A stretch of 64,000 nucleotides of DNA from Botryllus schlosseri (Eukaryota). The notes below the pieces were generated by a model. It was not told the DNA's origin and ran no database searches. It saw only the letters and a list, made by a program, of their open reading frames with translations. A program made the translations under genes and the position numbers. Numbering within the stretch: position 1 is the first letter of the stretch; every line of letters begins with the position of its first letter. The stretch is taken from assembly GCA_051294905.1 (NCBI GenBank), contig CM119371.1, forward strand, positions 21,640,001-21,704,000, written 5' to 3'. Shown here one piece after another: positions 1 through 63,412 of the stretch.

Positions 1-2127
1 AGGGATTTAAACAGATTTAAAAGAAAAACCAAAAAGGCAAAGTATGACGCAACAATCAAAATCACAAACCATGAAATTCGCATTGTACCAATGGCAACAA
101 TAACAAACTATGAAGTATACGGACATACGGTACTATAGTAGCAGCACAATTTGTAAATAAACAATTACACGCACGGAACAACACGCACTGATGAGAAATT
201 TGTAGGTTATAGAGGAAATCTTTTTGTCTGCATAAAATAGGTTTGCTCAACTGAATAATAGTAGACTCCAACACTTTTAAATGAAACACAGACCTACCAC
301 GCGCAATGACAGTGAACATATTGTCATCATAGTGCTGTGCACAGGCAAGGTTTTCACTCAGATGCTGACCAATTGACGAAGCATATGCTTGGTAATCATC
401 ATAGCAGTCTGTTTTTGCAGCCAATTTGCACTGACGTGCGAGCTCCGTGCGATCATTTGCGCAAGTTTTTGACCGAATCAATTTTGGGATATGCTGCTTA
501 ATACGCTCAAACAATCTTTGAGATGTACGTCCTACATACCTACTATCACAGTGGCACTTGTATTGGTAAACAACATTACTTGCATCAAAGGCAGGAAGTA
601 CATCTTTTCGAGAGTTGGGTAACAAGGGTTTCGTCGTGTACACTACATGCGTGTTAACGCTGTAATAGCAACGGTGAACAGCCGATTTAATAAGCTTTTC
701 CAAACGGCTAGACACGTTACCTAGCCAAGGTAGGTGCAAAAATGCCGGGCATTTTTTGGGTCATATTTTGGAGCTGTATCCGATTTTTTCAATACCCTAG
801 AGATGGAGCATTTTAATATGTGGTCCGGATAGCCATTTTTGGAGAGAATCAAGTGGATATCATCCAATTCGCGTGACAGTTTTTCTGGTGAGCAGAGACG
901 CAAGGCGCGATTAACGAGCGATGAAATGAGGTTTAATTTACGCCGCTTCGGGCAAAATGAATCCCAACGAATATAATGACCAGTGAAAGTAGGTTTTCTG
1001 TACACCGACGTTAAAAACGTTTGTCCTGATCTCTCTACTAAGACTTCTAAAAAGGGAAGGGCAGCATCAGTTTCCTTTTCCACGGTAAATTGTAGAGCTG
1101 GATGGAGACAGTTCAATTTTTCGAAGAAATTATTACACTCTCGCTCATTTTTAAAGGCAACAAAGGTGTCATCGACATATCTAAAATAGAGGAGAGGTTT
1201 TGCGACGTTTTCAAACAATTTCTTTTCATGGTATCCCACGAATATATCGGCCAAACTAGGTCCCAACGGTGAACCCATCGCAACACCATTGCATTGGCGG
1301 AACATCGTGTCATTGAAGCTGAATTCAACGCTACTAGTAGCAGTCTGCAACAATTCAAGAAATATTTTACGCGGTAGTTTCGGAGGTTCAAGCGTGCCAT
1401 CATAAAGCGCGTCTGCGCAGATTTCAAAAGTTTCCGACAATGGTACGTTGGTAAAAAGACTTTTCACATCAAATGAGCTAAGAAATACATTGGACGGATT
1501 TAATTTGGCGCATTTTAATTCGTCTACAAACGTGAACGAGTCGCGAACACAGTGGTGCGTATACAAGGTTCGAACTGGCTCAATGACGGTATTAAGCCAT
1601 TTGGCTAAATTATGTTGTGCCGATCCACACATAAACAATATGGGGCGAAGAGGAACGTTCTCTTTATGTGTTTTCGGCAAACCGTACATACGCGGCCGTT
1701 GCGATCCCGTTGGGCGTAGGGACTCGTACAGATTTGCAGGAAGTACTCCATCCTTCTTCAGTTTGAGAAGGCGACGCTGCAGCTTCATTTCTAACTTGCG
1801 CGTGTTGTCGTTCACATCAGCAGGACCCAGGTTGGTGAACTTGGACGAATCATGGAGAACAGATTCCTTTTTCATGTTGTAATCTGCCCGGTTCAAAATC
1901 ACAACTCCAGAGCCTTTGTCAGGTTTTGTGATGACAATTTTTTCATTTGAACGTAAATATTTGATGGTTTTAAGACAATCCTTGTTCATCAGAAAATCAC
2001 CGGCGTCAGCTGGGGTGCCACAATACGCATGTGCAAGATCACTGATTTTTGCTTTCATTGCGGAAAAACATTCCGGAGATACTGGTTTATGGTGTTGTAA
2101 TTGACCAATTAATACCTCGAAATCGGC
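1..2127 (-). mobile_element. Penelope-like retroelement (Penelope/Poseidon type), 5'-truncated left arm; 3' end lies outside the window
   Basis: ORFs 721-2058 and 62-739 encode PLE RT (TKPDKGSGVVIL, GVAMGSPLGP, YFRYVDDTF) and a C-terminal GIY-YIG (VVYQYKCHCDSRYVGRTSQRLFERIKQH). The frame continues to ~2127 (ADFEVLIGQLQHHKP). Confidence 0.95.
62..2058 (-). pseudogene. PLE RT + GIY-YIG endonuclease ORF with a 1-nt frameshift near 755
   Basis: Relative to the plus copy (KYGPEKCPAFLHLPWLG), one base is missing, which splits the ORF in two. Confidence 0.9.
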
Positions 2128-3683
2128 GTGTTCGCGACTCGTTCACGTTTGTAGACGAATTAAAATGCGCCAAATTAAATCCGTCCAATGTATTTCTTAG
2201 CTCATTTGATGTGAAAAGTCTTTTTACCAACGTACCATTGTCGGAAACTTTTGAAATCTGCGCAGACGCGCTTTATGATGGCACGCTTGAACCTCCGAAA
2301 CTACCGCGTAAAATATTTCTTGAATTGTTGCAAACTGCTACTAGTAGCGTTGAATTCAGCTTCAATGACACGATGTTCCGCCAATACAATGGTGTTGCGA
2401 TGGGTTCACCGTTGGGACCTAGTTTGCCCGATATATTCGTGGGATACCATGAAAAGAAATTGTTTGAAAACGTCGCAAAACCTCTCCTCTATTTTAGATA
2501 TGTCGATGACACCTTTGTTGCCTTTAAAAATGAGCGAGAGTGTAATAATTTCTTCGAAAAATTGAACTGTCTCCGTCCAGCTCTACAATTTACCGTGGAA
2601 AAGGAAACTGATGCTGCCCTTCCCTTTTTAGACGTCTTATTGGAGAGATCAGGACAAACGTTTTTAACGTCGGTGTACAGAAAACCTACTTTCACTGGTC
2701 ATTATATTCGTTGGGATTCATTTTGCCCGAAGCGGCGTAAATTAAACCTCATTTCATCGCTCGTTAATCGCGCCTTGCGTCTCTGCTCACCAGAAAAACT
2801 GTCACGCGAATTGGATGATATCCACTTGATTCTCTCCAAAAATGGCTATCCGGACCACATATTAAAATGCTCCATCTCTAGGGTATTGAAAAAATCGGAT
2901 ACAGCTCCAAAATATGGCCCAGAAAAATGCCCGGCATTTTTGCACCTACCTTGGCTAGGTAACGAGTCTAGCCGTTTTGAAAAGCTTATTAAATCGGCTG
3001 TTCACCGTTGCTATTACAGCGTTAATACGCATGTAGTGTACACGACGAAACCCTTGTTACCCAACTCTCGAAAAGATGTACTTCCTGCCTTTGATGCAAG
3101 TAATGTTGTTTACCAATACAAGTGCCACTGTGATATTAGGTATGTAGGACGTACATCTCAAAGATTGTTTGAGCGTATTAAGCAGCATATCCCAAAATTG
3201 ATTCGGTCAAAAACTTGCGCAAATGATCGCACGGAGCTCGCACGTCAGTGCAAATTGGCTGCAAAAACAGACTGCTATGATGATTACCAAGCATATGCTT
3301 CGTCAATTGGTCAGCATCTGAGTGAAAACCTTGCCTGTGCACAGCACTATGATGACAATATGTTCACTGTCATTGCGCGTGGTAGGTCTGTGTTTCATTT
3401 AAAAGCAGTGGTGGCTTTTGGGGTAGGCGAGGTAGGCGGTCGCCTAGGGCCCCCCTGGTTGATTTACGCGCTTTCGAGGCCCCCCTCCTCGGTTTACGCG
3501 CTTTTTCCAACTATATTTCCGGTTTACGCGCTTTTTTTCAAGTATTACCATTTTCTGAATAACCGCGGAATCCTTGTATCCATAAAGAATATGGTATTGT
3601 ACCGTAATGACAGGTCAATCATCAAATCTCATTTTTTAGTAATCATTTTACGAATAACCACAGAAATCCATGCGCCAATTTAG
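2049..3683 (+). pseudogene. Chimeric ORF: truncated PLE RT/GIY-YIG reading through into the hAT terminus
   Basis: The protein matches the minus copy up to ...RSVFHLK, then switches to TIR-derived sequence at 3406. Confidence 0.85.
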
Positions 3684-4520
3684 AATATGGTACCATAAGC
3701 AGTAGTCGATCATTAAATTTCTGCGCTAGTTGCAAGAGCTCACTTTGATTTGATGATCTCTATCTATTTTGCCATTAGCTAAAAGGCCCCCCTCCTACGT
3801 TTACGCAAATGTTATCATTTTGCAAATAACTGTGAAAATACATGTACCCATGTAGTATGTAATACCGCACACAGAAGTCAATCATTAAATTACTGCACCT
3901 GCTAAAAACTTACTTTGATTTTATGAGGGGGGCCCCTTCTTCATTTACGCGATTTTTGGTTATCATTTTACGAATAACCGTAAAAATACATGTACCCATG
4001 TAGCATATGGTACCGTAAACAGTAGTCGATCATTGAATTTCTGCATCCGCTTAAAGAGCTTACTTCGATTTTATGAGCCCCCCCCCCTACATTTATGCGA
4101 ATTTTAGTTATCATTTTGCGAATAACCGTGAAAATGTATGTACCGATGTAGAATATGGTACCGTAAACCGTCGATCATTAAATTTCTGCATCTGCTAAAA
4201 GAGCTTACTTTGATTTTATGAGCCCCCCCTTATATTTATGCGAATTTTAGTTGTCATTTTACGAGTAACCGTGAAAATATATGTACCCATGTAGAATATG
4301 GTACCTAAACAGTAGTCGATCATTAAATTTCTGCACCTGCTAATAGAGCTTACTTTGATTTTATGAGCCCCCCCCCTCCATTTATGCCAATTTTAGTTTA
4401 TCATTTTGCGAATAACTGTGAAAATACATGTAGGCCTACCCATGTAGAATATTGTCTTGTAAACGGTGTTCGATAATTGAATTTCTGTGCTTGTTAAAAG
4501 AGCCTACTTCGATTTTATGT
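3540..4520. repeat. Tandem repeat, ~147-bp unit, about 6-7 copies, inside the hAT
   Basis: ttatcattttRcgaataac recurs near 3640, 3811, 3960, 4108, 4250 and 4398. Confidence 0.9.
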
Positions 4521-6357
4521 TAATGAGGTCATATTGTAACATGGAATGAATTATTATTGAGTATATATTTCCTAGTGGCAGCAGTGTATATTTCAGTGCA
4601 TCAAAATTTTCCAGTATAAGTTTGTGAGATTCTACTTGCTAGCTCTTGATGCCAGCTTTCATATGATACCGTATGTTAATTGATAATGAACCGTGTCCAC
4701 ACTGAGCCTGAATATCCAAAATATCAAAGGAAATAGTCATTTGAAAGCCAATGAAAGCATAGGCTATTATAGCCTATATATTGTTGTTTACTGAGCCATT
4801 CTCTTGACTCAACATATAAGTTGTGAATTGGGCCTTTTCTGAATGGAAATCCATTCTCAGGGTTGTCATGATGGTAAATTTGTTCATTTCTTGTCTGCGG
4901 ATTAGCAGCGTATTTTCAAAGCTTTACCATGCTCAATGTGCACCCGGTACAGTCAGTCAGAAAGTGTTTATGGTGTTGTCAGAAAGTGTTTTTTTTTTAT
5001 CACAGGTGGATGTCTTTTAATTGGTGGTGTACTATAGATAGATATGCAATACCTCTAGCATGCAGGAAAGTTTCTAGCGGCCTGATGCCTGATATTTTAT
5101 GCCTCAGAAATCTATGTCGATACTTGAAAGGTTTGAATGGCTATCATCGAGAAAGGTGTACGAAAGGCTACATATATTCAATTTGTTGTGACGTTGATAA
5201 TTTAATGTGATGTCACAGAAAAAGACCAAAATGTGACCAAACAATTAGCAATGGAATCAATTTCAGCAGGGCAGAGGAAAGAATTAAATGATCACAAGGC
5301 AAGTTTTTGCAACTATTTTTACTGCTTCTGGCAGCTTCCTAAATACTCGGAAGTTATGTATTATGGTGTTTTAAGCTGTTTCGAGGAATCTTATATTGCG
5401 ACTTTTCTTCATTTTTTCAAGCAACTTCTTGCAGCTTTTCGATTTTTCATTTAACTCACTTTTTACTGGAAATATTTGGTACTTTATGTAAATAGATCGC
5501 TTGATTATCATCACTGTCGTTTAAATTTGAGGTCATTTCTCAGTTGACATACATTCAGGCTAGACCGCCGTAAATTATATTAGCCTACTACTGGGTCGAT
5601 TTTTTCAGGCTATTGATTTTGTTGAAGGCACCAACACTGAGTTTTGCGACAGTGCCTTGGATATGCATCGATTCGAGTATCTCATACCTTAATAATGTCA
5701 AGAAACTTATCCATAAATGTACTTTTTTAGTGTAACTTTAGTGAAAAATAAATGAAAAATAAATGCAACTTTTTACTTCAACTTTTATGAAAAATATGTG
5801 CAACTTTCCACGGATTTGACTGCAACCAAAATTTGCCCTAAGATCAGGTGTTGCATAAGACAATTTTGACCATTACACTCTTGAAATGGGCTACCAGTTC
5901 AATATAAATGTGACTCGGTAAACAGCATATTTAGTAAGGCGCACTCGTCAGTTGACAACCGTACCTTTCATTAGCTACGATGAGTTTGGTATCACTCGGT
6001 TATATGTTATGTTGTAATTGGTAGCATCAGTATCTCCTAATTACTGCAGTCAAGTATCTGTTACAATGCCGCGAGTACATGCTAAATGTAAGTCAGGATC
6101 TCAGAAAAGGAAGTGGTTCAGATTTGGAAAGAAAGTGACAATGCAAATTTTGAACTGCGACACAAATATTTAACCATCTATTTCAGCTCAGGAATGTTCT
6201 GCACAAATTGAGGATGATGCTGTTTTTCCACCAACTATATTGCCTTGTAGACTTGAATGATGTAACAGTGCTTTCAAATACGTATATTGTATTTGATTGT
6301 ATTGGTCTTTTTTTTTGTCTTTGGCGTTTTAGGTTTAATCCAACCAGGCAAGTTCTT

Positions 6358-6679
6358 ACAGACAAAAATTTTTTTTCTATAACTTACAATTTTTTCATTA
6401 GTGCGTGTTGTTTCGTGTGTGTAGCTGTTTATTTACAAATTGCGCTGCTACTATAGTACCGTATGTCCGTATACTTCAAAGTTTGTTGTTGTTGTCATTG
6501 TTACAATGCGAATATCATGGTTTGTGATTTTGATTGTTGCGTCATACTTTGCCGTTTTGATTTTGCTTTCAAATCTATTTAAATCCCTTAGGTGTGCAGT
6601 TAACTCTTGAAGAGAGGCACCCAAAAATTATCCGAGTTCAATAAATATTATATTACAATGGATGTTGTATTGAAAGCTA
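6358..6679 (+). mobile_element. Diverged solo 3' end (pLTR) of a related PLE
   Basis: Collinear with 9930-10249 but with many substitutions. Confidence 0.85.
6602..6638 (+). ncRNA. Degenerate minimal hammerhead ribozyme in the PLE pLTR
   Basis: aactc-TTGAAGA-gaggcaccc-AAAA-attat-CC-gagtt; GAAA and the UH site are mutated. Confidence 0.55.
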
Positions 6680-8376
6680 TATTCTTATAGATCATGGAAC
6701 TAGCTCTTCACAGGTGATACCAGTACTGATGTGTTCCTGTGGTATTACTGGTGTTGTACCACATTGCCGCACATTTTGCTTTTATGCCTTATCATGTAAC
6801 AAAATCTTCTTTGTAGCAAAAAGATAGGCCCAATCCAGCACCTGGCTGAAACCTTGACGTGGTGTGCTGGCTTATTACTAATGTCAGCCGACAGCTTTCT
6901 GGATTTATGTGGTATATTTGGCGTGCAGTTGCCTTGTTATACTATTATGTCATGCTACATCCCATAATTCTTCTACATAGGTGGGTCTGGGCACGCGCTG
7001 TAGTTCACTTGAGTCACTTGTTTTCGAATATACCAAGTCGTTTATTGTACTGTGGCATGACATTATAATTATTTTATATGCTGAAAGTCTAAGAAAAATC
7101 TCGTAATACAACCATCTAATAAAGAGAAGGTCATAAACTATAGGATATCAAAGGATGGATATATCTTCGGCCTAAAAAGATTTAAAAGAGGAATGCTAAG
7201 AATGATTAAAAGAAAAACTGAGGTGTATAAATGCAAATTTTGTAGAATAAAAGACGAGACAGTGGAGCACGTTTTCGCTAACTGCAGAGTAACAAGAGGA
7301 GTACTGAAGAATATAGAAAAGGCCCTCCAATTGGGGCATACGAACAGAGAAGTGATACTTCACAATAAGCTGAATGAAGACAGTGTAAAATTGACGCTGA
7401 TATCGATATTCAAGCGTACGGTGCTGCGATATAAACAGCACCTAGACATATCGAACGCATACCTGTCAGACGAAAAAGCGTGGAGGAAGAACACGGCGGA
7501 AGTCATCCTGATGAAAATTTTGCAGAGAATCAAACTGCAAAAAGAAAGTCTCATAAATCAGAGCATAAAAAACTGGACGAAAAAAATTCAAACATTCTTA
7601 TCCGAAGAAAGAAGAAACGATGGGGCAGAAAACGACAATAACGACGATGACGAAAGAAGGAAAGACTAAAGACGAAAGTAAGGATGATGAATACCAACGG
7701 ACGAAGGATGATGGACGAAACGGAAAAGAACGCGGCGAAATATGAATGTGTATGTGAGAGTCACTGGCGTAGCAGCATGTGCTGCCGCCCCTGGCTCTCT
7801 TGAAAATGCCGCCCCCCTAGGTAGACCGCATCAAATTTCGACATAGATTGATGTTCAAGTAATCTTGTCAATAGGAATAATTACAAATAATATGCCGCTT
7901 CTCAGCCTCACCGTCTCGACGTTAATGACGCCAAAAATAATAAGAACAAGAAATAGCGAACGAATGTATTGTACAAATAGAAAATCAATGGCCGCCTCAA
8001 AGCAAAAGCAGCGATAATATCCTCAAATTCAAGTTTTTGAACGTAGTCTCTTTCTATAGACAGAATGGATGGAGCTGATAGCCGATCATTATTCATGATA
8101 GAACTAAATATATAAGACTTAATCAGTTTGAGCTTTGAGAAGCTCCTCACACAGCTCGCAGTTGAAACACCAATGTTCAGATAAAGTTTCAGACACGAGC
8201 ATAAATACGGTGTCGAACCAAGTAGCTTTGCATTAAACAACCACTGTAAAACATCAAACGTTGTTGCACTACGATCAAACGTGGTTTCACTGCTCCGCAC
8301 CAGCCTCTTAACCCTGTTAAAATCTCAAGTTGAACAACTTCATATGATTATAACTTAATTTGTGTTCGTCCTAGAG

Positions 8377-8698
8377 CAGTGGTTCGCAACTTTTTTTTAG
8401 ACACGCCTCCCTTTAGGATAGTGAAAAATTCCGCGCCCTCGTACCGTCATATTACAAGATCCAACCGGGATGCTAGCAACCCTAACAGATTGTTTGATGG
8501 CATGGAAGGTTATGACTGTTGATGAGAGAATTCAAAAATAAGAAACTGGGTCTATATATAGAGAAACACGCGTGAATTGCAGGTAAATCGCGCATAGCGC
8601 GAAAAAAATTCATTTGACCGATTCATCGCGCCCCCTTAAGATGCTTTCAAGCCTCCCCCCCCCCAACGGGGGCGCGCGCCCCAGGTTGAGAACCCCTG
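8377..8698. mobile_element. hAT-Charlie-type MITE
   Basis: TIR cagtggttcgcaac/gttgagaacccctg; TSD tcctagag (8369-8376, 8699-8706); same family as 40997-41297. Confidence 0.88.
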
Positions 8699-9237
8699 TC
8701 CTAGAGGCCTCATATTGGTTTGTACGAAAAGCTAGCAATCTTCTGCTTTATATGATCCCTAATTCGAGGTATAAGGCATGACAATTTTCGCAGCTAACTC
8801 CAAATAGTCCACCTCGTCGTCATAAGTGCTTCTAAAAGCGCTGGTGAATAAATTGTGACTTTCGCTTTGCAGCAGCGCGTGGGAATTCAAAAATCCAAAT
8901 ATATCATTTAAGTGGTGAATGCCGGTAAACCTAGTTTCAGCTTGAAGTTTAAATCTGTCCTATGCTTGAAACATGCATCGTCTAAATTTTTCAACAACAC
9001 TGAGGCCAGCATCTTTTGTTAGTTCGCCAGACATTCTCCTTTTTCTGCGAACTCTCCGAACAATCGGCCGTGACGGCTATTTCGGAGTGATTCCATCGCC
9101 ATGTTAACATATTAATTCGTGTTTTCGGAATCAGCGCGACACTAGCTTTCGATTGAGACCTGTTTGATTAAATTTTAGCTGACGGGACGCCAGCTATAGG
9201 ACTACCAAGCACTCTTATTTTAGCCGGCTGTCTACAC

Positions 9238-9450
9238 GCCGCGCGAGATAGTGTAATGGTGATTGGTGATGCGTCCGGCTTCTTGATCGGTAGGTTGTGG
9301 GCCCGATCCCCGGCCGGGTCAGACCGAAGACTCGAAAACTGGTATCCGCGGTTATCCCGCTAGACGCCCAGCAATCACGGAGGAGAAAAAAAAACGGGGT
9401 GCAGACTAGATGACCTTACTATAAAGTCCTTATCGCATCTCCGTCTTCAA
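9238..9450 (+). mobile_element. Degenerate tRNA-derived SINE
   Basis: A-box-like tagtgtaatgg and B-box-like gcccgatccc, followed by a central domain gggtcagaccgaagactcgaaaactggtat. Confidence 0.55.
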
Positions 9451-10172
9451 ACCATCACGATGATGCAGGCATCTCTCTCACTGTGCAGCCTCATTTTGCC
9501 GCCCCCTTGGAGCCTGCGGCCCCTGGCGCAGAGCCAGAACCGCCAGGTGGCTGCTACGCCACTGGTGAGAGTGTGTGCATTGTGTTTGCATATTTCATGT
9601 GTGTGAATGAGAGTGCGCGCGATAAAATATAAATGGAAATTATATGTATTGAAATTATTAAAGCAATAAATATGTTGGCGGACAGCCAAAAGAAAAAAAA
9701 ATGAAAGTTTCAACATGATGTACAGACAAAGCACTACCAGAACAGTGTATACGTGGTGTAGAACAATGAAGGTATCGATAAGCGCTAGTGAGGGGGGTCC
9801 AGAAGTTTCGATAATATAGATAAGGAGGGCCCCCCCGGAAGTTTCGCCTAGGGCCCCCCCAATCGTAAGGCCACCACTGTTTAAAAGTGTTGGAGTCTAC
9901 TATTATTCAGTTGAGCAAACCTATTTTATGCAGACAAAAAGATTTCCTCTATAACCAACAAATTTCTCATTAGTGCGTGTTGTTCCGTGCGTGTAATTGT
10001 TTATTTACAAATTGTGCTGCTACTATAGTACCGTATGTCCGTATACTTCATAGTTTGTTATTGTTGCCATTGGTACAATGCGAATTTCATGGTTTGTGAT
10101 TTTGATTGTTGCGTCATACTTTGCCTTTTTGGTTTTTCTTTTAAATCTGTTTAAATCCCTTTAGTGTGCCGA

Positions 10173-10211
10173 TAACTCTTGAAAAGAGGCACCCGAAAAG
10201 TCTTCGAGTTA
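10173..10211 (+). ncRNA. Minimal type I hammerhead ribozyme (U3-A8 variant) at the PLE 3' end
   Basis: Stem I taactc/gagtta; core TTGAAAA (10179-85); G-aggcacc-C; GAAA (10195-98); near-palindromic stem III aagtctt; cleavage predicted after C10205; AATAAA follows. Confidence 0.8.
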
Positions 10212-11374
10212 ATAAATATTATTCTACAATGGATATTGTATTGATAACTTAGCATTGATGATCAGTAATTTCCGTGACCCAATCTTGGTCTAAATGAATT
10301 ATGTTTGGCTAGGTGAGAACGAGAATGTTATGCTCATTATATAAGAATTTTCCCCTAAAATATCGTAGGATAAAGCCATACAATGAAACAAAGAATAATT
10401 CGAAACGAGGTGGACGATTCTATATAAATGGAACACCCAAATTGACGGAAAAATACATTAAAAAATAGGATGCAAGCTAAATGAAACAGAAAATACATAT
10501 ACATGAAAAGCTAGAAGCAATGAAGGACGTCGCCGTATCAAAATTGCGATCCTTTAATCTCAAAACGGCAGCAACTTGCAACCGGTAAGTATGGATTTGA
10601 ATAATAAATTTTGTTGTTGATATGTTGAGATAGACCTGAATAATTCGACTGACACTCATCAGTAGGGCGATTTTTTTTTGACATGTCAAAAAATGTCAAA
10701 ATTAGGTCAAAATTGTAGCGTTAGGTCAAAATTTGTCAAAATTGTTCACAAAGTCAAACATTTTTTAACCTCTGAATTTCGTTTGTATCGTAGATTTTGC
10801 GCTGTCGGTGAACTTATCACTTGATATTTTACAGCTTGTAGTCTACTTTATAAGCCTGCAGTTGTAAACGACCCATCGTCTGCTCATTGTGAATCATAAA
10901 CGATCATATGAAACAAATAGTGACATGGTTTTATGGTCAACGTACCGCAAACCGCAATATCCTAACTGAAGCAAGACTGCTTGGACATTGCATGATTCTT
11001 ATATCAAGAAGCGCAAGCTGAAAAATTGTGATATAGACAACATTGTCAGAATGAAGCAACACGGTGTGTCACCAGCAGTGGTACACACAACTTCAGTGTT
11101 GTCAGCCAACAACCACTGCTGTTTAACGTTCTTTCTCCATTCTTGGCAAGCTACCCAGTAAGGACAAACACTTTCTACCCGAGAATATAGGAAAGTAAGC
11201 TATCTTTCGTTCGTTGTACTACAACAAATTTCAATTATTTCCACCATAATACGTAATGTAACTACTGGAATTCTTCATAGGGCCAGATTTCGTTAAAATA
11301 CTAGTTTCTTCATGGGCTTCTTGAAGGTACGGAACTTCAATATACAATTGAATAGTATATTCACATTGAAATGA

Positions 11375-11408
11375 ACGCGAATATTTTCGGCTGACACACG
11401 TCAGGGGT
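11375..11408 (-). ncRNA. Hammerhead ribozyme copy with a core mutation
   Basis: Minus strand reads accc-CTGACGT-gtgtcagcc-GAAA-atat-TC-gcgt. Confidence 0.65.
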
Positions 11409-11525
11409 AATCGTCAGCAACTAGTAGAGAATTGGAAAGAACATGGTATATCAACAATCGTATCACAAAATATGACGTGTTGATATAACATGTTCTTCCC
11501 AATTCTCTACTAGTTGCTGACGATT

Positions 11526-11559
11526 ACCCCTGACGAGTGTCAGCCGAAAATATTCGGGT
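11526..11559 (+). ncRNA. Minimal type I hammerhead ribozyme, intact core
   Basis: accc-CTGACGA-G-tgtcagc-C-GAAA-atat-TC-gggt; palindromic stem III aatatt; cleavage predicted after C11555. Confidence 0.88.
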
Positions 11560-12410
11560 TCATTTCGATATGAATATATACTATTCAATAGTTTTTTCAT
11601 GTAAAAATTTGCCAGTTTTTGTGCCCAAAACGTTTTTTCAGGCCAATCTACTTTGTAAGGACAGACAGTTTCAACCAGAAATGAAGATAAGTAGTACAAT
11701 TTTGACATTATGTGCGAAAACACCTAATTTGCATACGTAAGGCCAAAATTTGGTCAAATTTCGGTTTTTTAGGTCAAAAAATGTCAAAATTTAGATTTTT
11801 TAGGTCAAAATCTTCCCTTTTTTAGGTAAAAAAAAAATCGCCCTACTCATCAGGGTTAATCATCAGCAACTAATGGAACATTCAAAAGAATATTGTATAC
11901 CAAATGTATGTCGGAAAATATCTATAAGTTCCCGAAAAGCTGTGAAATTCACATGACATTCCATCGCCGGCCACAGAGCCGCATGGCCGTTTGAAATGCG
12001 GTCATTTCACCTGTTGTTTTAATTCTCCTGTCAGTACTGAACACCATGACCTAGTACCTGGAAGAAACAATTAGGGCATCAAAGAAACAATAAAATGGGG
12101 AAAATCCTCTATAAATTCCATAAAAGCTAAAAGCTGTTAAATTCACATAACATTCTGCGGCCAGCCACAGCCCAGCTCGCTGTGGCCGTTACTCATCCGT
12201 TCTGATAACTTTTTTTTTCAACCATAGGGTAGAGTTGCAACCGACTGCATAGCTAGTTATATTGTATGGAGCTGAATAGTTGCGATTTCAATACTGATGG
12301 GCTGATGAATTCGCTCAACACTTGCATAAGCGCCTTTGCATTCTGTCGATGAAAACACGACATGTAGGCTTCAGCCGTTTCCTTCACAATGAAGCAGTCA
12401 TGCTGTAAAA

Positions 12411-13114
12411 CAGGGCCGGCCAACCCGTGGCCCGCGGGCCATATGTGGCCCGCGAGAAGGTTTTGAGTGGCCCGCGAGGAAATTTCCGAAATTTCTAATA
12501 TCAAAAATGAATTGCACAGATTGTGAGCTTGTGAGGCCAACCAAAAATTTGATTAGTCTGGCCGCAACACTTGAGATGTGATGACTAAAATATCTGTTCC
12601 GACGTATTGGCAGATCCATGAGCCAGTCACATATTGATAGATCTTCGTACAGTACAATAAAGCAGAATAATTTGTGATAGATTTATTAAAAGTAAAACTT
12701 TTCTACACGCTTCGCGCAACATGTTATCACTCGATTTCTTGCTTTTAATATTGTTGCCCCTTTGTGAAAATGAAAGAACGCCTAATGCATTCGCGATTAC
12801 GAGACAGAGTGTCGTTCAACATATGCAATTTGCGTTTGCACTCGCAGAAAGACCGTCGACTATGGAACCTAGGCACAACATATTGGCGCATGTTGGCCGA
12901 AACTTTCGATATCCATATGTCCAGATGCCAATAGCGAATGGCCCAGTCCTAGCAAACTGAGTCCAGCGATATAAGCAGGCCCGCAATATAGTCAGGTGAC
13001 AATATTATTGACCTGTGAACTTCAAAAAGATTTCGCGCTTCGCGCGGCTAGTGGCCCGCGCAACAGTTCGTCAATCGAATGTGGCCCTTTGGCTGAAAAG
13101 GTTGGCCAGCCCTG
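12411..13114. mobile_element. hAT-Charlie-type MITE
   Basis: TIR cagggcYggccaacc; TSD ctgtaaaa (12403-10, 13115-22); second copy at 45930-46651. Confidence 0.92.
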
Positions 13115-30526: not shown

Positions 30527-33500
30527 TTACAATTCTTTATATATCTCTGCCACTTGAAATGGTGAATTCGATGACCGGCCATATAGTATGTGCGTCTGTG
30601 AGTAGGGACCGGGCGTTAGGGGTACTCTGTTTTGGTCAGCAGTCTGAATTAGATCGATCCTGGCACGGTCATATTTAGGGCAATGGAGGAGGAAATGCTC
30701 GACGGTTTCTTTGATCCCGCATGCATCACAAAGGCCATTTTGATGACATTTAATTCTGTGTAGATGACCGTTCAGCCTAGAGTGACCAGTCTGCAGTCTA
30801 ATTAGGATTCCAGATTCCCTGCGTGACAAATCTATAATTGGGTTAATGTCCCTGATATCTCCAATAATTTTTCTATATTGCGAGTCGTCGTCATGGGCAT
30901 TCATGTGGTCGATCCACTTTTTCCGACATATATCGGCAATGTGGGATTTCATTTCCTTCATAGTAATTTTTTGCTGAAGGTTTGGATCTCGCACGAGTGG
31001 CATCAGTGCTGCTCTTCGTGCGATTTCGTCGGCTTTTTCGTTGCCGCGGATACCTTTATGGCCAGGGATCCAGGCCAAAACAATTTCTATCCCTAGTGCA
31101 TGTAAATCCGATCCTAGGAGGAGGATATCGGCCATGAGTTCATTGTCCGGAGAGCAATTTCGAATCGCCACCAGACTACTCTGGCTGTCCGACAAAATAG
31201 CCACACGGCTTTCAGGCGTACCATTGCGTTTGACCCATTCTAAACTATTCCGAATGGCGTTCAATTCTGTCGAGAGTACGGATAAGTGACCGTCGAGGGT
31301 GTAGCTGTAACAGTCGTCTCTGTTCTCAACGAAGAAACATGAACCACAGCCCGATGCGTTTTTCGAGCCATCGGTGTAAATTCTGGTGCTCCCCACATAA
31401 TGCTCGTGTATGTATTCTTCGGTGATTTGTTTTGCAAAAGTGGGATGGATATCTCTGGATATTAACGTAGCTAGGCGTAAGTCTACGCCGATCTTGGGCT
31501 GTGACCATGGTGGCAACGGAGGCTGTTCGTAATTTTGGACGATTGGGTCTTCAAACATGTCCGGTCCTGTTAACATGTTGAAGGTTCGGAATGAGTCGTT
31601 GCCGGGAAAAATTTCGTGCCATGAGCCAGTTATTAAGTCTTTGTGGGGGTGGTTCACATTTGCCATTATCCTGACACGAAAGTTGAGACAGAGTTGCAAG
31701 TGTCGCAACCATATGGGAGGCTCCCCATTTGAATGTTGCAATGCGTGTATTGGCGTAGGCTACTCCTCATACCTCCGCAACAAATGCGAAGCGCTTTATT
31801 CTGAATTTTCTGTATTTTATCAATGACGTATTTTGGGGAGAGTAGGTATGCTTCGGAACCATAGTCGATTATTGATCGTATGGTAGATCTGTATAGCGTC
31901 AATAAGCTCGATCTCGAGGCGCCCCAAGATGTCCCTGATAGAAGACGTAACAGGTTCATCCGTTTACTACATCTCTCAGTCACTGCGCGAGCGTGACTCC
32001 GATAGTTCAATCGATAATCGAATAGGATTCCCAGGTACTTGAATTCCTTTACGACTGGCAAAATGGGATTGCCCAGACTAAGACGAATCGTGGGGACTTT
32101 GCGGCACCTCGTAAAAACTATGGCTGCAGATTTGGATATATTGATTTTGAAACCCCATTGCTCGGACCATTTCCTGATTGTATCGAGAGAATCCTGAATA
32201 TCTTTCTGTACATTGTTTATGACCAAATTAGAATCCCATATGCAGACATCGTCGGCAAACAAATTGATGTTCGTTTTAATTTTGTCAGGAAGGTCGTCCA
32301 TCATTATTGAGAAAGGAAGAGGACTAATAACACTTCCCTGCACGATTCCATTCGCAAGTTCATGCACGTCCGATAATGTGTTGCCAATGCGAACTTGGAA
32401 CGTCCTATGTGCCATGAAAGAGTGTAAACCAATGGAGAATATTACCTCCAAGACCGAGACGTTGAAGCTTGAGAATGACTCCGTTTCTCCATACCATGTT
32501 GTATGCCTTTTCTATATCTAAGAAAACTGCTATGGCATACCGCTTGGTCCAAATGGCTTTATATACATGGTCATGTAACGCGAGAATACAGTCGTTTGTG
32601 GACCTATGTCGACGAAACCCACTCTGATGGTGGTTCAACAAATTGTTTTCAGTGAGCCACCATTCTAAACGATTTGCAACCATCCGCTCCATTGTTTTAC
32701 ACATGTTGCTGGTGAGTGAGATAGGACGATACGAGGATGTCTTGGTTTCATCTTTACCTTGCTTAAGTATGGGCACAACAATTGAATGCTGCCACGATTC
32801 GGGACAAGAGCCAACTGCCCAAATGTTATTGATGGCTGTTATCATGACCAACTGACTTTCCTCGTCCAGGTGCTGCAGCATCTGATAGCAGATTCTGTCC
32901 GCTCCCGGAGAAGTGCTTTTGCGGTTATTTATTGCACGTTTCATTTCTACCATATTGAATGGCGCGTTCACTCAGAGTGTTTGGGTATTATTTTCAACAG
33001 GGGGCAACGAAAGATTGGTTTCCATTAAAGTTCGCCGGTGTAGGAATAGACAATCTAAATTATTGTTGCTGCTGATTTCAGCAAAACTATTTGCGAGAGC
33101 ATTGTCCTTGCTGTCAGTCAGATGGTTGTCAAGATGATTGAGTACACGGATCTGGTTCCAGGATCTGCTGCAACCGTTAATCGATCGCACGACACGCCAC
33201 ACTTGGCACAACTTAGAATTGTGATCAAGAGAACTACAGAAGTTATCCCAGTAGGACTTTTTGGCTGAAAGTATGATTTTTCTAGCGTCTGCTCGCCTCT
33301 GTTTAAAGACTAAGATATCTTCCATTCTGAAGGATCGCTTCAATTTGCAGAAGGCCGCCCGTTTCCGGCGAACCGCCCTGGAGCAACTCTCGTTCCACCA
33401 TGGGACAGAACTCTTTCCTTCGATAGGTTTCGTGAGGGGTATGCTTTCGGTCGCGGCTTTGATTATCGAGTTGCTGATCTTTTCTATAGTAATCTCGTCT

Positions 33501-36289
33501 AGATTTTTAAAGTATTGCGAACATAGCTTTTGAAAGACGTTCCAGTTGGCTTTCTTGAAGGACCAAGATCGGTAATGGAAATCATCCCCTTGACTGGATA
33601 ACTGCAAGTCGTTCATAACAACAAAATGGTCGCTCCCCAATAGTTCGTCCGTCACCGAGGTAACAATCTTCGGGGCGATATCTCTGGATGCAATGCATAG
33701 GTCTAAAAGTGAAGTCCGTGTGATACTCGGTACGGAAATATCAATACGTGTTGGCATTGTTGTATTGATAACAACCAAGTCATTATCGTCTATTATTGAG
33801 TGAAGATGACGACCATTCGTATTGATGGCGCCCAGGGTTGTAACCAAGTCACATGGTTCCGAGTCACGAGTCAATCTTACTTTTGTGATTTTGACTCGAG
33901 TCAAGTCGAGTCATTTTCAATACCTCACCGAGTCGAGTCCGAGTCCAAGTCACCGTTTAAGGGGTCAAGTCCGAGTCATAGTGTTATGACTCGAGTCCGA
34001 GTCCAAGTCACAGTATTCAAGTCGTGTTCAACTTATGTTTTCAATCCTGCTTGGGTGATATCGGATTCCTTGCTTGACAAATATGCTTATTTTGTCCCTA
34101 TCAGAGTCTTTTGGCACATGTTTATTTAGGCATATAATGAAAACTTCCTGGCCTCATTTACCGATGCCACAGATAGACGAGACAGGCCGCCAATATGATA
34201 ACTTTACTAATTGTAGAACTTTAAATCAAATATCTGTCTTGTCAGTCTGATAACTCACAAATACAAGCATTTAGTTTTGGTTACGAGCACAACGACAACA
34301 GCTCACAAACAGCTTATAGACAACCAACGAATTCACTTCTACATATTATATGATAGAGAACCTACGAATTCACGTCTAGATACCAGCTGATAGAGAATCA
34401 AAAGATCACGTTTATGTAGACTGTAGATGTACAGTTTTTTTTCACATTATCAGGTGGTTGACTAAAAAAAGTTCAACTTTCCTGCTCAGCTCCCGAAATA
34501 GCCGCTGGAGCGTTACTTCAGTGCTGATTTAAATGAGGCCACTTCTTAAAATTGTTAGATTGCCTAAAAGAACTTACATTTGGCTCAATTCTAACCAGTA
34601 AAAAGCATTGCTATGACAGAAAATTTTGGACGAATTACAAATAGAGACTTTCGAATTTTACGGGCTACCTCATGATATTGTTAGATTGTGTAAAAATATG
34701 ATTCATAGCAAATTTGGCTCAATTCCAACTAGAAGAAGCGAGGTTATTAGAGTGGAATATTTTAGATATGAAAAAATAGTCGGCTTACTACTAGTATGTC
34801 ATTATATTATATGAAAGAATTTCTCACTAAAAATACTTCATTTATTTTCAAACCCAAAATTTCCTCCTCTCATATCATTGATTCTACTTTTTAAAATGAA
34901 GCCATATTCAGTGTTGTTTTTATGCAACATAACAATTTTATCAAGTAGCCACCCAGTAGGATAAAAAAGAAGTTATTTTGAACTCCGTATTGTACAAACA
35001 CCACAAAACATTAGCCATTCATTATTACTCACGTGGACAATGCACATACCTAACAAAACGTCAAATGGACTGTGTGTTTTCACAGACAGCAGATAAAATC
35101 ATTGAGTTACACTTCAAAAATACTAGTGGAAAGGAGGTCCTCAGATATGATAAAGTGGCATGGCCTTAGAATAAATCCACATCTACTGAATACACCTTCC
35201 ACTGGTGCACTAGATGCAGGAATGGACAAGCAGTTTCGAACCACACCGCAGAGCATTGGATAGTCATTCTTTCTAGTCGCCCAAAAATGCAAAGAATCAG
35301 CGCCTTCAAATCTTCACATGAACTTACAGGGATATCCCTGACGAGCTTATCAGTATCTTCCAAGTAGGCCTACTTGACCATCTGAGTCATTTCATTGGCT
35401 GTAATCGAACTTTGCTTCGATTTTTTGCTTGTATAATTAAAAAGTCTTGTGTACTTTTATTGCAGAGGATCTATTACCTCTTTATCGCTGGATGATTTTG
35501 TTCAATGCACTGCTACTATGTACCATTGTCTGTTGTTTTTACGGCGACATATCTGATATCAGACGAGTGCAACGAGAGCATTGGTAACAAATAGCGATGT
35601 CGGCAGAATTCGTCAGATGCGTTGATCTAACCATTAGCATTCGCAAATTTCTTCATCTTCCAATCATATAAAATAAGTCGAGTCAATGACTTGTGTCGAG
35701 TCATACGTAATGACTCGAGTACAAGTCGAGTCAATTCAAATATTGACTCGAGTCAAGTCGAGTCATTTCCCCATTTAAAGAAAATGACTCGAGTCAAGTC
35801 GAGTCACAAAAAATCGTGACTCGAGTCTGACTCGACTCGAGTCATGACTCGAGTCATTACAACCCTGATGGCGCCACTGCTCCATATTGGATGGTGAGAA
35901 TTGAAGTCACCCAAAAGGATCGTTCTCGAGTTGCACTGCGCAAAGCATCGCTCGAAGAGAGCGTGTGAAATTGCTTGATTCGGTGGGATGTACACGTTCA
36001 TTATTTTCAAATCGTGCAATTTGATAATATGGGCCTCTATAGGATAAATGTTGTCTACGGGGACTTCGAAGAAAGACAGGTCTTGTCTGGCAAAGATACA
36101 GACACCACCTCCGTGCTGTCGCGATTTTTTATAATAAATTTGTAATTCGCAATTCTGGGCGTGTACTTATCGATCAAGTGCGTTTCCTGCAGAGCAATGA
36201 TGTCGGGCATTTTGTCAAGATTTTCCAAGTAGGCCTAATATTTCAATTCGTGGATTTTCCGGTATATCCCTCTACAGTTCCATTGCATG
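30527..36289 (-). pseudogene. LINE ORF2 (EN-RT-RNase H), frameshifted and split by a hAT
   Basis: ORF pieces 35804-36019, 32972-33904, 32405-32971, 31666-32451 and 30527-31741. Confidence 0.9.
33833..35867 (-). mobile_element. hAT deletion derivative with GACTCGAGTC subterminal repeats
   Basis: TIR cagggttgtaa; TSD atggcgcc (33825-32, 35868-75); dimerization domain FWATRKNDYPML..SIPASSAPVEGVFS (35107-35292). Confidence 0.93.
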
Positions 36290-45929: not shown

Positions 45930-46651
45930 CAGGGCCGGCCAACCCGTGGCCCGCGGGTCACATGTGGCCCGCGAGAAGGTTTTGAGTGGCCCGCGAGGTA
46001 ATTTCCGAAATTTCTAATATCAAAAATGGATTGCACAGATTGTGAACTTGCAAGGCCAACCAAAAATTTGATTAGTTTCGCCGCAACACTTGAGATGTGA
46101 TGACAAAAATATCAGTTCCGACGCATTGACAGATTCATCAGCCAGTCCCATATTGGTATATCTTCGTACACTACAATAAAGCAGAATAATTTGAGATGGA
46201 TTTATCAAAAGTAAAAATTTTCTACAAGCTTAGCGCAACATGTTGTCACTCGATTCCTTATTTTTAATATTGTTGCCCTTTTTGTGAAAATGGAAGAACG
46301 CCTAATGTATCAGATTGAGTCTAACTATGTTCGCGATTACGAGACAAAGTGTCGTTCAACATATGCGACCTTGCGTTTGCGCTCGCAGTAAGACCGTTAA
46401 CTATGAAACCTAGGCACGGAATGATTGACGCATTTTGGTCGCAGCTTTCGATATCGATATGTCAATGCGCCGAATAGCCCAGTCCTCGCAAACTTAGCCA
46501 AGCGATATACGGCAGGCCCGCAATATAGTCAAGTTACAATATTATTGACCTATGAAATTCATAAAATTTTCGCGCTTAGCGCGGTAAGTGGCCCGCGCAA
46601 TATTTTGTCAATCGAATGTGGCCCTTTGGCTGAAAAGGTTGGCCAGCCCTG
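45930..46651. mobile_element. hAT MITE, second copy of 12411-13114
   Basis: Collinear along its full length; TIRs intact; TSD poorly conserved. Confidence 0.88.
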
Positions 46652-62331: not shown

Positions 62332-63412
62332 CAGTGGTCGGGAACCTATGGCTCGCGAGCCATATATGGCTCTTTTGGGTAAAGATATGGCTCTTTGCCA
62401 AAATTCATTTTTGTACTGAATTGATCAATATTGCAGCGACTTGTTGGTAAATATTCATCACGGCTAGAATAATTATTCTCGTGGCAGTATAACCATGTCT
62501 TTGAAAGGTAAAGACAATGCCGTCTTCAGGTTTAGGGGCTCGGCTCGGACCCCTTCTTTTCAAAATCATCAAATTTAAGTTACTGCCACGCTGGCGGCCA
62601 ATATCACTCGCGAATTCTATGTACTCGACTCGGAATTTTGAATTGTGCGATACGTTGATTAATCAAAGAGCATATTAAGCAGACATGGCGACACCCATTT
62701 CAAAACGCAGTTTTCAAATACACATTGTCTTCCTGATCTACGGCGCAAAATGAACTGTTGTGGATGTGAAATTCACAATTACAAACTCGAATTACAAACA
62801 ACGCCATAGCATCCACGTTCTTGATTGGTAAGTTTAGCTCTGTGTAGTACCGGCGATAAAATGTATTGGTGTAGCGTAACGTTATATTACCGCCGAATAC
62901 TTTGATAACTGAGAAGTCGATTAGTACCGTATTTAGATTTTCGGAATCAGTGTGACAGTCACATTCGATTGATATCGGTTATAATAAATTCTTACGATGA
63001 ATTGCATTATCAATGTTGAGGCTTGGCCCGTCTGTGCTTTACCACTCGTTTCGAGCTTGATTTTCGAACAATAAATACCAGTTTTTACAGAGAAAATATG
63101 GCGCACACGAAGAATTCCAATATACAATTGAATAGTATTTTCATATCGAAATAAACCCGAATATTTTCGGCTGACACTCGTCAGGTTTCGAGTTTATTTC
63201 AATATGAATATACTATTCAATTGTATATTGAAGTTCTGTACATCCAAGAAGCTCTATGAAGAATTCCATGTAGTGAGTTCGAATTAGTGCTAGACGTCAT
63301 GAATTTTCAATTGTGACGTAACGGTTGATTGACATGTATGGCTCTTTGGGAGTTGAGATGGAAAAAATAGGGCCAATATGGCTCTTCGGACAAAAAAGGT
63401 TCCCGACCACTG
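62332..63412. mobile_element. hAT-Charlie-type MITE containing a hammerhead palindrome
   Basis: Perfect 16-bp TIR cagtggtcgggaacct; TSD atctaata (62324-31, 63413-20); atatggctc repeats. Confidence 0.93.
63153..63187 (-). ncRNA. Hammerhead ribozyme core, same family as 11526; stem I disturbed by the inversion junction
   Basis: Minus strand reads aaac-CTGACGA-gtgtcagcc-GAAA-atat-TC-gggttt. Confidence 0.75.

Follow-up and report, generated by a model that had tools for sequence, protein, structure and literature searches.

The palindrome at positions 11315..11589 of the window, a stretch of 64,000 nucleotides (64 kb) of the Botryllus schlosseri genome, is in all probability (roughly 0.88) a defunct pair of 5'-truncated Penelope-like element (PLE) ends, inserted head to head and carried in a non-autonomous hAT-like DNA transposon. 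A preliminary description of this DNA had read it as a short non-autonomous element mobilised in trans, a reading abandoned here: what the copies represent is the truncated ends of a PLE that, at full length, is coding. For annotation, such palindromes should be filed as PLE stumps and hAT cargo, and not as a new class of ribozyme elements.

Structure of the locus and of its relatives in the window

The inverted arms, at 11356-11456 and 11478-11578, were 101 nt long, 94% complementary and separated by a spacer of 21 nt, and each contained an outward-facing CTGACGA..GAAA..TC motif. The outward-facing arms with an intact plus-arm motif that had been described, with a length of ~110 bp, are thus real. 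In the plus arm the motif was complete (core 11530-11536, GAAA 11546-11549, C17 at 11555); in the mutated minus-arm copy (11374..11418, minus strand) the core was CTGACGT, with A9 lost, and GCG replaced the GGG that follows the cut site in the plus arm. Computed folding of RNA of positions 11309-11589 gave a single long hairpin at -177.4 kcal/mol, where shuffled sequences averaged -57.0 (z -26.7). The loose motif was matched 11 times in the window versus 6.2 expected, and 11 of 100 shuffles reached 11 matches; this count is within chance. What supports the motif is the repeat family and not its frequency in the window.

Insertion 3' ends of the family were grouped in two clusters ~37 nt apart, at positions 5369-5384 (a) or 5402-5417 (b) of the reference, locus L077, with which the arms are colinear in sister copies of the double insertion. 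The minus arm (~11315-11478; reference 5115-5412, minus) has an outward b-type end, with a 'tail', and the plus arm (~11480-11589; reference 5240-5376, plus) has an a-type end without tail, 20 nt into the PLE ORF. These first 20 nt of the ORF are at 11570..11589 on the plus strand, with the ATG at 11570-11572, and end at the a-type insertion end. The pair is enclosed by a 12-bp target-site duplication, AGTTTCTTCATG at 11303..11314 and AGTTTTTTCATG at 11590..11601; in the family alignment, AGTTTTTTCATG flanks the PLE dimer on both sides.

The dimer lies within the hAT-like element, 10663..11845 (1183 bp), which has termini TAGGGCGATTTTTTTTT in inverted orientation, subterminal GTCAAAA-type repeats and an 8-bp target-site duplication, CTCATCAG, at 10655..10662 and 11846..11853. 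This element splits an older, diverged PLE end on the minus strand within its CUGAUGAG core, leaving a 3' piece at 10595..10662 and a 5' piece at 11854..11921, the latter sharing 78% identity with the younger arm across 59 nt. A second, independent head-to-head stump is located at 63120..63257, between 11-bp duplications (63109-63119 and 63258-63268, GAAGAATTCCA). Its minus arm (63120-63185) breaks off at the first core base and has an a-type end, and its plus arm (63186-63257) begins near the cut site and has a b-type end with tail and an ATG at 63204; residues 1-22 of P0002 were matched at 63204-63269 by tblastn. Both recurrences of the family reported earlier were thereby recovered, one inverted again and the other older and split. 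The likeness to the inverted PLE that opens the window was also borne out, tblastn placing a second PLE family there, head to head, at 191-2127 (minus) and 2130-3410 (plus). The PLE at 1-10249 had no DNA similarity to the arm and belongs to a different family, with a protein identity of 50-62%. An RT ORF was absent from all three window places, as had been stated, but at other places in the genome the family does have one.

Parent element, insertion ends and the hAT-like carrier

The window arms come from the terminal region of an autonomous PLE that is abundant in the genome and has an RT and GIY-YIG-like ORF; the proposed link to PLEs was right. They are colinear with the last ~300 nt of full coding PLE units and the first 20-60 nt of the ORF. 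Tandem units of 2692 bp, 99.9% identical, were found at L077, with 848-aa ORFs starting with MNILFNC. RVT_1 was matched in this ORF (E 7.8e-9, 36 bits, cut-off 29.6), and the RT motifs FRQIDGLAMGSPLGP and YRRYVDDTF were present. A VVYEY...YVGRT...RINQH motif is visible in the C-terminal region, where the VVYEYRCHCDCGYVGRT segment was matched to Pfam GIY-YIG with E 0.022 and 15.5 bits, under the cut-off of 22.6. The L062 protein as query gave 3050 candidates, and the 133 of them that were scored included open frames of up to 863 aa, arrays at 2692-bp spacing and many inverted neighbours. The 5' part of the arm as query gave 1695 candidates. Across 30 loci the 3' ends were common and the 5' ends were scattered over more than 1 kb (reference 3946 to 5259).

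Solo copies had 11 a-type ends, nine b-type ends and one of neither type. The 17 independent head-to-head pairs, counted without L035 and without the first pair of L051, both complex, comprised 15 a+b, two b+b and no a+a. Target duplications were of 11-12 bp at head-to-head pairs and of 9-12 bp at the six insertions where they were read. Among the matches listed, neighbouring motifs up to 3.1 kb apart were oriented (-,+) in 25 cases, (+,-) in none and on the same strand in four, three of which were spaced by the PLE unit length (2544-2778 bp).

Truncation, target duplications and a one-sided tail are published PLE behaviour: Craig 2021 (PMC8557442) describes 5' truncation, an adjoining inverted copy and, at one of the ends, a tail of 30-40 bp. 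The family shares with canonical EN+ PLEs (Evgen'ev & Arkhipova; Craig et al. 2021; Frangieh et al. 2024) the tandem units forming pLTRs (here of 2692 bp and 99.9% identity), the heavy 5' truncation with an abutting inverted 5'-truncated copy, the 30-40-bp tail at one end and the hammerhead-type motif in the pLTR beside the ORF start. As to the palindrome nothing substantial differs, except that the window copy was later moved by a DNA transposon. Frangieh 2024 (PMC11167929) describes PLE protein cutting and extending both target strands in vitro, the PLE tail being defined by two start sites of RT that are internal. Modelled on that work, the PLE endonuclease would nick both target strands ~11-12 bp apart, and each nicked 3' end would prime reverse transcription inside the ORF start, at start site a or b, whose distance of ~37 nt would account for the 'tail'. 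Both cDNAs would stop early and then be joined 5' end to 5' end. The 15 of 17 pairs whose two ends use different RT start sites provide a clean genomic count for this in vitro result.

Positions 11478-11600 as query gave 1116 first-look candidates in the 495-Mb genome; 40 were scored and 29 other loci were fetched. An inverted partner arm was present in 25 of these 29 loci, and in 21 of them the same junction (reference 5115-5412 minus, 5240-5376 plus) was inside the hAT-like element. Both termini of this element were present in 19 of 30 loci, with the window copy counted, and 18 of these 19 had a perfect 8-bp duplication at unrelated flanking sites. Position 2 of the duplications was T and positions 4-5 were AT in 18/18, and position 7 was A in 17/18. 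The identical junction, together with separate 8-bp duplications at different sites, indicates that the hAT-like element spread the dimer round the genome. The flagged dimer is hence cargo of this transposon, and its present place is not the original insertion site; ~142 bp are missing at the centre of the window copy (spacer of 21 nt versus 163). A check of genome copies had been proposed in the preliminary description, and it confirmed the frequent inversion; as to a non-coding family it gave the opposite, with an RT ORF in full units of the same family and 21/29 copies as hAT cargo.

The assignment as hAT-like was made on the target duplication and the termini. YARNG is the terminal form of hAT elements. 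The element agrees with this superfamily in its 8-bp duplication fitting nTnnnnAn, its short terminal inverted repeats starting with TAGGG and its short subterminal repeats, and differs in that its 1183 bp lack a transposase gene.

Other origins of the palindrome were considered. A short non-coding PLE-dependent retrozyme, amplifying as such and prone to palindromes, would fit the absence of an RT ORF at the three window copies, the PLE type of the motif and a 2026 preprint (10.64898/2026.07.22.740005), which holds that animal retrozymes originated from PLE pLTRs. Animal (non-LTR) retrozymes (Cervera & de la Pena 2020, PMC7229834; 10.64898/2026.07.22.740005) are likewise short ORF-less DNA, and their hammerhead-like motif is of type I and related to PLE pLTRs, but they are direct tandem repeats giving unit-length circular RNAs. 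Direct tandem repeats of an ORF-less unit with same-strand hammerheads were not found here, the arms being inverted; compared with the retrozymes of PMC7229834, the window family has no fixed 5' end, contains the start of an ORF and would give no unit-length product. Against a retrozyme are also the continuous rather than discrete 5' ends, the 20-60 nt of coding sequence in the arms, the single, duplex-locked sense motif per transcript, the spread of 21 of 29 sampled copies as hAT cargo and read ends that are not piled up at the cut site. The preliminary description had itself named truncated ends of a coding PLE as the contrary case, and this is what was found, with scattered 5' ends and 2692-bp units with an 848-aa ORF; a retrozyme is very improbable. 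Less probable still is a DNA transposon of foldback or MITE type, with long terminal inverted repeats that are PLE-derived by chance: it would explain long inverted arms and direct duplications at the flanks, but the ends are unequal, with a one-sided tail in 15 of 17 dimers, centres and arm lengths vary between copies, duplications vary from 9 to 12 bp, and solo 5'-truncated copies have identical 3' ends.

Slightly more credible than these two, and still improbable, is the formation of the head-to-head arrangement after a simple insertion, by a DNA-level event (template switching, hairpin repair) and not by reverse transcription. The insertion reaction itself is known here from its products alone, and the 142-bp loss at the centre of the window copy shows later DNA change; however, target duplications enclose the whole pair and not one arm, the a+b asymmetry of the ends fits two priming events, and PLE protein extends both strands in vitro (PMC11167929).

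The hammerhead-like motif and its predicted pseudoknot

What each arm carries as its motif is a hammerhead-like element belonging to the PLE itself. The conserved boxes CUGANGA and GAAA and the U-H at the site were present, the plus arm being intact, and the predicted cut is 14 nt upstream of the ATG of the PLE ORF. A 65-nt block was invariant across PLE subfamilies, with flanks ~10% divergent, and a scan of the PLE unit gave one sense-strand hammerhead-like site and no other. Genome-wide, the motif patterns were counted 1473 and 1500 times, versus 76 and 14 for reversed controls. Rfam hammerhead models gave no match at gathering score across the whole window, and with E allowed up to 10 neither the surroundings of the locus nor a full PLE unit gave one; the scan with these models, suggested earlier, thus did not recover the motif, while its hammerhead-like nature stands. 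Around the locus, the Rfam scan gave miRNA-type hairpin matches alone, caused by the palindrome.

A canonical stem II was rejected for both CUGACGA boxes: A9 and G12 are just 9 nt apart, which rules out the hairpin, and it cannot be drawn. The motif is instead predicted, from its sequence, to be a pseudoknot-type hammerhead with a helix in place of stem II. In the plus arm it extends over 11516..11560 (plus strand) and would consist of the upstream pseudoknot strand P5' (11516-11521), a linker (11522-11524), the 5' strand of stem I (11525-11529), CUGACGA (11530-11536), G10.1 (11537), a linker (11538), P3' (11539-11544), C11.1 (11545), GAAA (11546-11549), the palindrome AAUAUU (11549-11554), C17 (11555), after which the cut is predicted, and the 3' strand of stem I (11556-11560). 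The G10.1-C11.1 pair would close a 7-nt loop, six nucleotides of which would pair with the strand 5' of stem I across a 3-nt joint; stem III, a short palindrome, would need a second molecule.

Covariation was assessed in 44 sequence-cluster representatives of several PLE families, all from this one genome. The long-range helix, between the 6 nt from G10.1 to C11.1 and the strand 5' of stem I, was paired in 68.2% of cells, with a covariation of 0.428 against 0.199 +/- 0.030 in shuffles (0/500 reached it) and 0.058-0.153 in slid controls; since the families are related and share one genome, the shuffle controls are inflated. All six pairs change on both sides, one of them being GC in 9, AU in 8, CG in 4 and UA in 4. 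A local 3-bp helix had a covariation of 0.060 versus 0.103 in shuffles, and 29/44 cells were unpaired at each of two pairs. Stem I was fully paired (5/5) in 10 of the 44 representatives; in shuffles this number was 3.8 on average and 9 at most. The C3-G8 or U3-A8 and the G10.1-C11.1 pairs were set by the search patterns and do not count as evidence. In some clusters the long-range helix is broken; in the GGGAAACCC family it is paired at 4/6, and a local 3-bp hairpin could form. The minimum-energy fold of the monomer was four small hairpins, and not a hammerhead (z -1.5). The GCCCAGA(C/A)C motif family (L111-L115, L117), also considered, fits no hammerhead form, its complement being 36 nt upstream with no U-H site.

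Zhan et al. 2024 (PMC11300833; PDB 8YDC) credit the discovery of the pseudoknot hammerhead to Weinberg et al. 2015. There, as predicted for the PLE motif, a loop closed by G10.1-C11.1 forms a 6-bp pseudoknot that replaces stem II, the partner strand is 5' of stem I via 3 nt, and the order of parts is identical. The 3-nt joint is AUA in that structure and mostly G-N-U in these PLEs. That structure further differs in that its partner strand is the loop of a helix IV, contacted by the linker; in all PLE families just 3 nt lie between the pseudoknot strand and stem I, which leaves no room for a helix IV. In addition, the PLE motif has a short palindrome where a full stem III would be, and it resides in an animal retrotransposon.

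The minimal PLE hammerheads described by Cervera & de la Pena 2014 (PMC4209133) share the pLTR location, the short stem I (4-5 bp), a palindromic stem III from which dimeric action is implied, the G10.1-C11.1 pair and the U3-A8 variant of the core, which was found in whole families of this genome; motif pairs on opposite strands, 100-700 bp apart, are also recorded there. Those hammerheads have a long local stem II (6-8 bp) and an unpaired base after A9, whereas the window motif has 9 nt between A9 and G12 and would make the stem with an upstream strand. A pseudoknot form for PLEs was not found described in the literature examined.

It is put forward tentatively, at a little under even odds, that hammerheads of several PLE families here may be minimal pseudoknot hammerheads with a single-G-C stem II, no helix IV and an intermolecular stem III. 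Somewhat doubtful, by comparison, is that the CUGANGA and GAAA boxes are not a ribozyme and that the conserved pseudoknot is a protein-binding or reverse-transcription signal of PLE RNA. RNA reads without a cleavage signal and the absent Rfam match would agree with such a signal, as would two published points: hammerhead mutants leave in vitro insertion unaffected (Frangieh 2024, PMC11167929), and some PLE clades have the core without fitting stems (Craig 2021, PMC8557442). Against it, the placement of the boxes, the U-H cut dinucleotide, stem I, stem P and the palindrome of stem III is exactly that of the solved pseudoknot hammerhead (PMC11300833), and the U3-A8 core in print (PMC4209133) occurs in whole families here. 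If such pseudoknot hammerheads cleave, a pistol-like pseudoknot fold would be placed in eukaryotic retrotransposons, and the PLE 'HHR core' sequences unfit for published stem-loop descriptors (Craig 2021, PMC8557442) would have a structural answer. The motif merits a bench test, with covariation across families backing a pseudoknot for stem II and thousands of copies in the genome.

RNA evidence around the predicted cut

RNA runs X24 and X22 listed no pile-up of read ends at the predicted cut, and read depth was flat across it (X24, 441/470 then 431/485). For a PLE hammerhead active in vitro, Frangieh 2024 (PMC11167929) reports no ends at the site either. No RNA record was listed for L077:4900-5600. 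No circular-type joints were detected in X24 and X22, libraries not designed to show circles. Reads were on both strands, and 98% (X24) and 70% (X22) of those aligned continued into unlike sequence, indicating that they come mostly from stumps inside other transcripts. A head-to-head transcript contains one sense and one antisense motif, so that neither the release of a unit nor a hammerhead dimer is possible. In the fold computation such a transcript formed a 120-bp duplex, in which the motif of the palindrome would be locked.

Inverted arms and their carrier

Self-comparison of the window revealed an inverted repeat of 101 nt with 94% complementarity (11356-11456 and 11478-11578), its arms separated by 21 nt. 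The arms are halves of a head-to-head pair of Penelope-like element (PLE) end pieces, here called the dimer (11315-11589). Both carry an outward-pointing CTGACGA…GAAA…TC motif. In the plus arm it is intact and would be cut after C11555; in the minus arm A9 is gone and stem I is altered. This agrees with the preliminary description, as does the inverted recurrence that it placed near 63118-63260, located by sequence similarity at 63120-63257 and likewise head to head. A further recurrence, reported at 10633-10662/11846-11870, corresponds by similarity to an older split copy of a PLE end (10595-10662 and 11854-11921). In the window, the loose motif pattern by itself did not exceed chance (11 matches vs 6.2 expected; 11/100 shuffles reach 11), and the Rfam scan that had been suggested gave no hammerhead at the gathering score, nor at E values up to 10.

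A search of the 495-Mb genome with the 123-nt plus arm (11478-11600), proposed earlier for counting copies, yielded 1116 first-look candidates; most of the copies sampled spread as cargo of a hAT-like element. In the alignment of fetched loci, conservation reached far beyond the arms and dropped exactly after …ATCGCCCTA. Both termini (TAGGGCGATTTT… and its inverse) were present about 1315 bp apart in 19 of the 30 loci, window copy counted. Perfect 8-bp duplications at unrelated sites flanked 18 of these 19; position 2 was T and positions 4-5 were AT in 18/18, and position 7 was A in 17/18. Termini and duplications mark the carrier as a non-autonomous hAT-like element, located in the window at 10663-11845 and flanked on both sides by CTCATCAG. 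Its subterminal regions (10670-10745 and 11740-11835) are dense in short repeats of the GGTCAAAA / TGTCAAAA type, which may be transposase binding sites. The element was inserted at 10655-10662, where the older PLE stump has its CUGAUGAG core in reverse complement; since this target matches the element's nTnATnAn preference, the landing in that core is probably a coincidence of sequence.

Within the carrier, a separate 12-bp duplication flanks the dimer (11303-11314 and 11590-11601). The family alignment shows it too, which indicates a single progenitor insertion followed by spread at the DNA level. The dimer junction was identical in 21 of the 29 other loci. The inter-arm gap was 163 nt in most of the 29, vs 21 nt in the window copy, which later lost about 142 bp at the dimer centre.

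Origin of the arms in a coding PLE

The region directly upstream of the arm had 1695 candidates in the genome. Among 30 loci the 3' ends coincided, 5' ends were spread over more than 1 kb, and longer copies extended into an ORF bearing RT motifs. The corresponding protein gave 3050 candidates, of which the 133 scored included open frames of up to 863 aa, arrays at 2692-bp spacing and many inverted neighbours. At locus L077, tandem 2692-bp units share 99.9% identity and carry 848-aa ORFs. There the motif lies past the stop codon of one unit, with the predicted cut 14 nt upstream of the next unit's ATG, so that the arms include the first 20-60 nt of coding sequence; positions 63204-63269 of the window were matched by residues 1-22 of the PLE protein query (P0002). 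The arms are thus the end of an autonomous PLE.

Insertions ended at one of two sites about 37 nt apart, in L077 coordinates 5369-5384 (type a, tailless) or 5402-5417 (type b, with a tail of that length). Solo copies comprised 11 of type a, 9 of type b and 1 of neither, and the 17 independent head-to-head pairs, a count omitting two complex loci, were a+b (15) or b+b (2), never a+a. Target duplications of 9-12 bp surrounded whole pairs or solo copies. Eight loci lacking hAT termini had one sharp side and ragged starts on the other. By manual count in two genome motif listings, neighbouring motifs up to 3.1 kb apart were arranged (-,+) in 25 cases, (+,-) in none and on the same strand in 4. Truncation, end types, duplications and inverted pairing are already published PLE behaviour: Craig 2021 (PMC8557442) describes 5' truncation, an adjoining inverted copy and, at one end, a tail of 30-40 bp; opposite-strand motif pairs 100-700 bp apart are noted by Cervera and de la Pena 2014 (PMC4209133); and in Frangieh 2024 (PMC11167929) a PLE protein cuts and extends both target strands, with reverse transcription beginning at two internal sites bounding the tail.

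The preliminary description had interpreted 11347-11589 as a short, hammerhead-bearing non-autonomous element, a retrozyme mobilised by a PLE. This reading was rejected: the copies form a truncation continuum instead of a discrete short unit, the units are inverted, and most sampled copies moved as DNA. They are truncated ends of a full-length coding PLE, the very outcome that the description had set against its own proposal. The palindrome is an ordinary PLE insertion product, borne by a hAT-like element. As its units are inverted, one transcript carries one sense and one antisense motif, and a transcript through the pair folds to a 120-bp duplex (-177 kcal/mol, z -26.7 against shuffles).

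Bulk (X24) and single-cell (X22) RNA reads cover positions 5236-5414 of L077 on both strands, at depths of hundreds and over a thousand, respectively, falling to about 1-3 past the tail. Of the aligned material, 98% (X24) and 70% (X22) continues into unlike sequence, and depth is flat over the predicted cut, with no pile-up among the ends listed in either run. The reads therefore derive mostly from stumps within other transcripts and say little on the ribozyme; PLE stumps are transcribed mainly as passengers, which would give long double-stranded hairpins. Frangieh 2024 (PMC11167929) likewise saw no ends of this kind for a PLE hammerhead whose cleavage in vitro requires its protein.

A predicted pseudoknot form of the hammerhead

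With only 9 nt from A9 to G12, the motif does not allow a canonical hammerhead, and the best fold of the monomer consists of four small hairpins. The 65-nt motif block is invariant across PLE subfamilies, with flanks differing by about 10%. In a second PLE family of the window (50-62% protein identity to the main one), the equivalent position holds a U3-A8 core form, a variant published in PMC4209133. There, stem I shows compensatory changes, as does the pairing of the 6 nt after G10.1-N with a 6-nt strand immediately upstream of stem I. At this spacing, the two core forms occur 1473 and 1500 times in the genome, in several families, vs 76 and 14 for the reversed controls.

For covariation, 186 motif instances from the retrieved loci were grouped into 44 clusters at 88% identity, each represented by its commonest sequence with none dropped, and aligned gap-free through column 53. 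The long-range helix was paired in 68.2% of cells, with both-sided changes in 6/6 pairs and a covariation score of 0.428 vs 0.199 ± 0.030 in shuffles (0/500 reach 0.428) and 0.058-0.153 in slid controls. Stem I was fully paired in 10/44 representatives (shuffled mean 3.8), and the local 3-bp stem II had no covariation support among the 44. The C3-G8 and G10.1-C11.1 pairs, imposed by the search patterns, were excluded as evidence.

The predicted parts are, in order, an upstream strand, a 3-nt linker, stem I, the core, G10.1, a loop making the 6-bp pseudoknot, C11.1 and GAAA. They are arranged like those of the pseudoknot hammerhead solved in Zhan 2024 (PMC11300833), which has a helix IV; the PLE motif leaves no room for one. 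Stem III consists of a short palindrome (AAUAUU, AAGCUU or AAGUCUU), a trait shared with the minimal hammerheads of PLEs, for which action as dimers has been proposed. A candidate PLE hammerhead of pseudoknot form is predicted, backed by covariation within one genome, and is the part that deserves follow-up.

Other repeats

The second PLE family lies head to head within 1-10249, with a minus copy (191-2127), a plus copy (2130-3410) and a further 3' end (9839-10249; U3-A8 motif 10179-10198, ATG 10230). Bases 1-281 repeat 9880-10160 in inverted orientation at 99% identity, and tandem repeats of about 150 bp (3633-4519; 68-82% identity by self-comparison) directly follow the truncated plus copy. 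A separate UUGAAAA-GCCCAGA(C/A)C-GAAA repeat family at six loci (L111-L115 and L117 on G000 C1, e.g. 16114900-16115500) is preceded, some 36 nt upstream, by a perfect complement of 7 nt (UCUGGGC), with a hairpin between; considered as a hammerhead, it was rejected, having no U-H site and matching none of the forms tried. RNase H and RVT_1 domains are encoded by ORFs of another, non-PLE retroelement at 30527-33904 on the minus strand, and a 190-bp direct repeat (94% identity) is found at 12411-12600 and 45930-46119.
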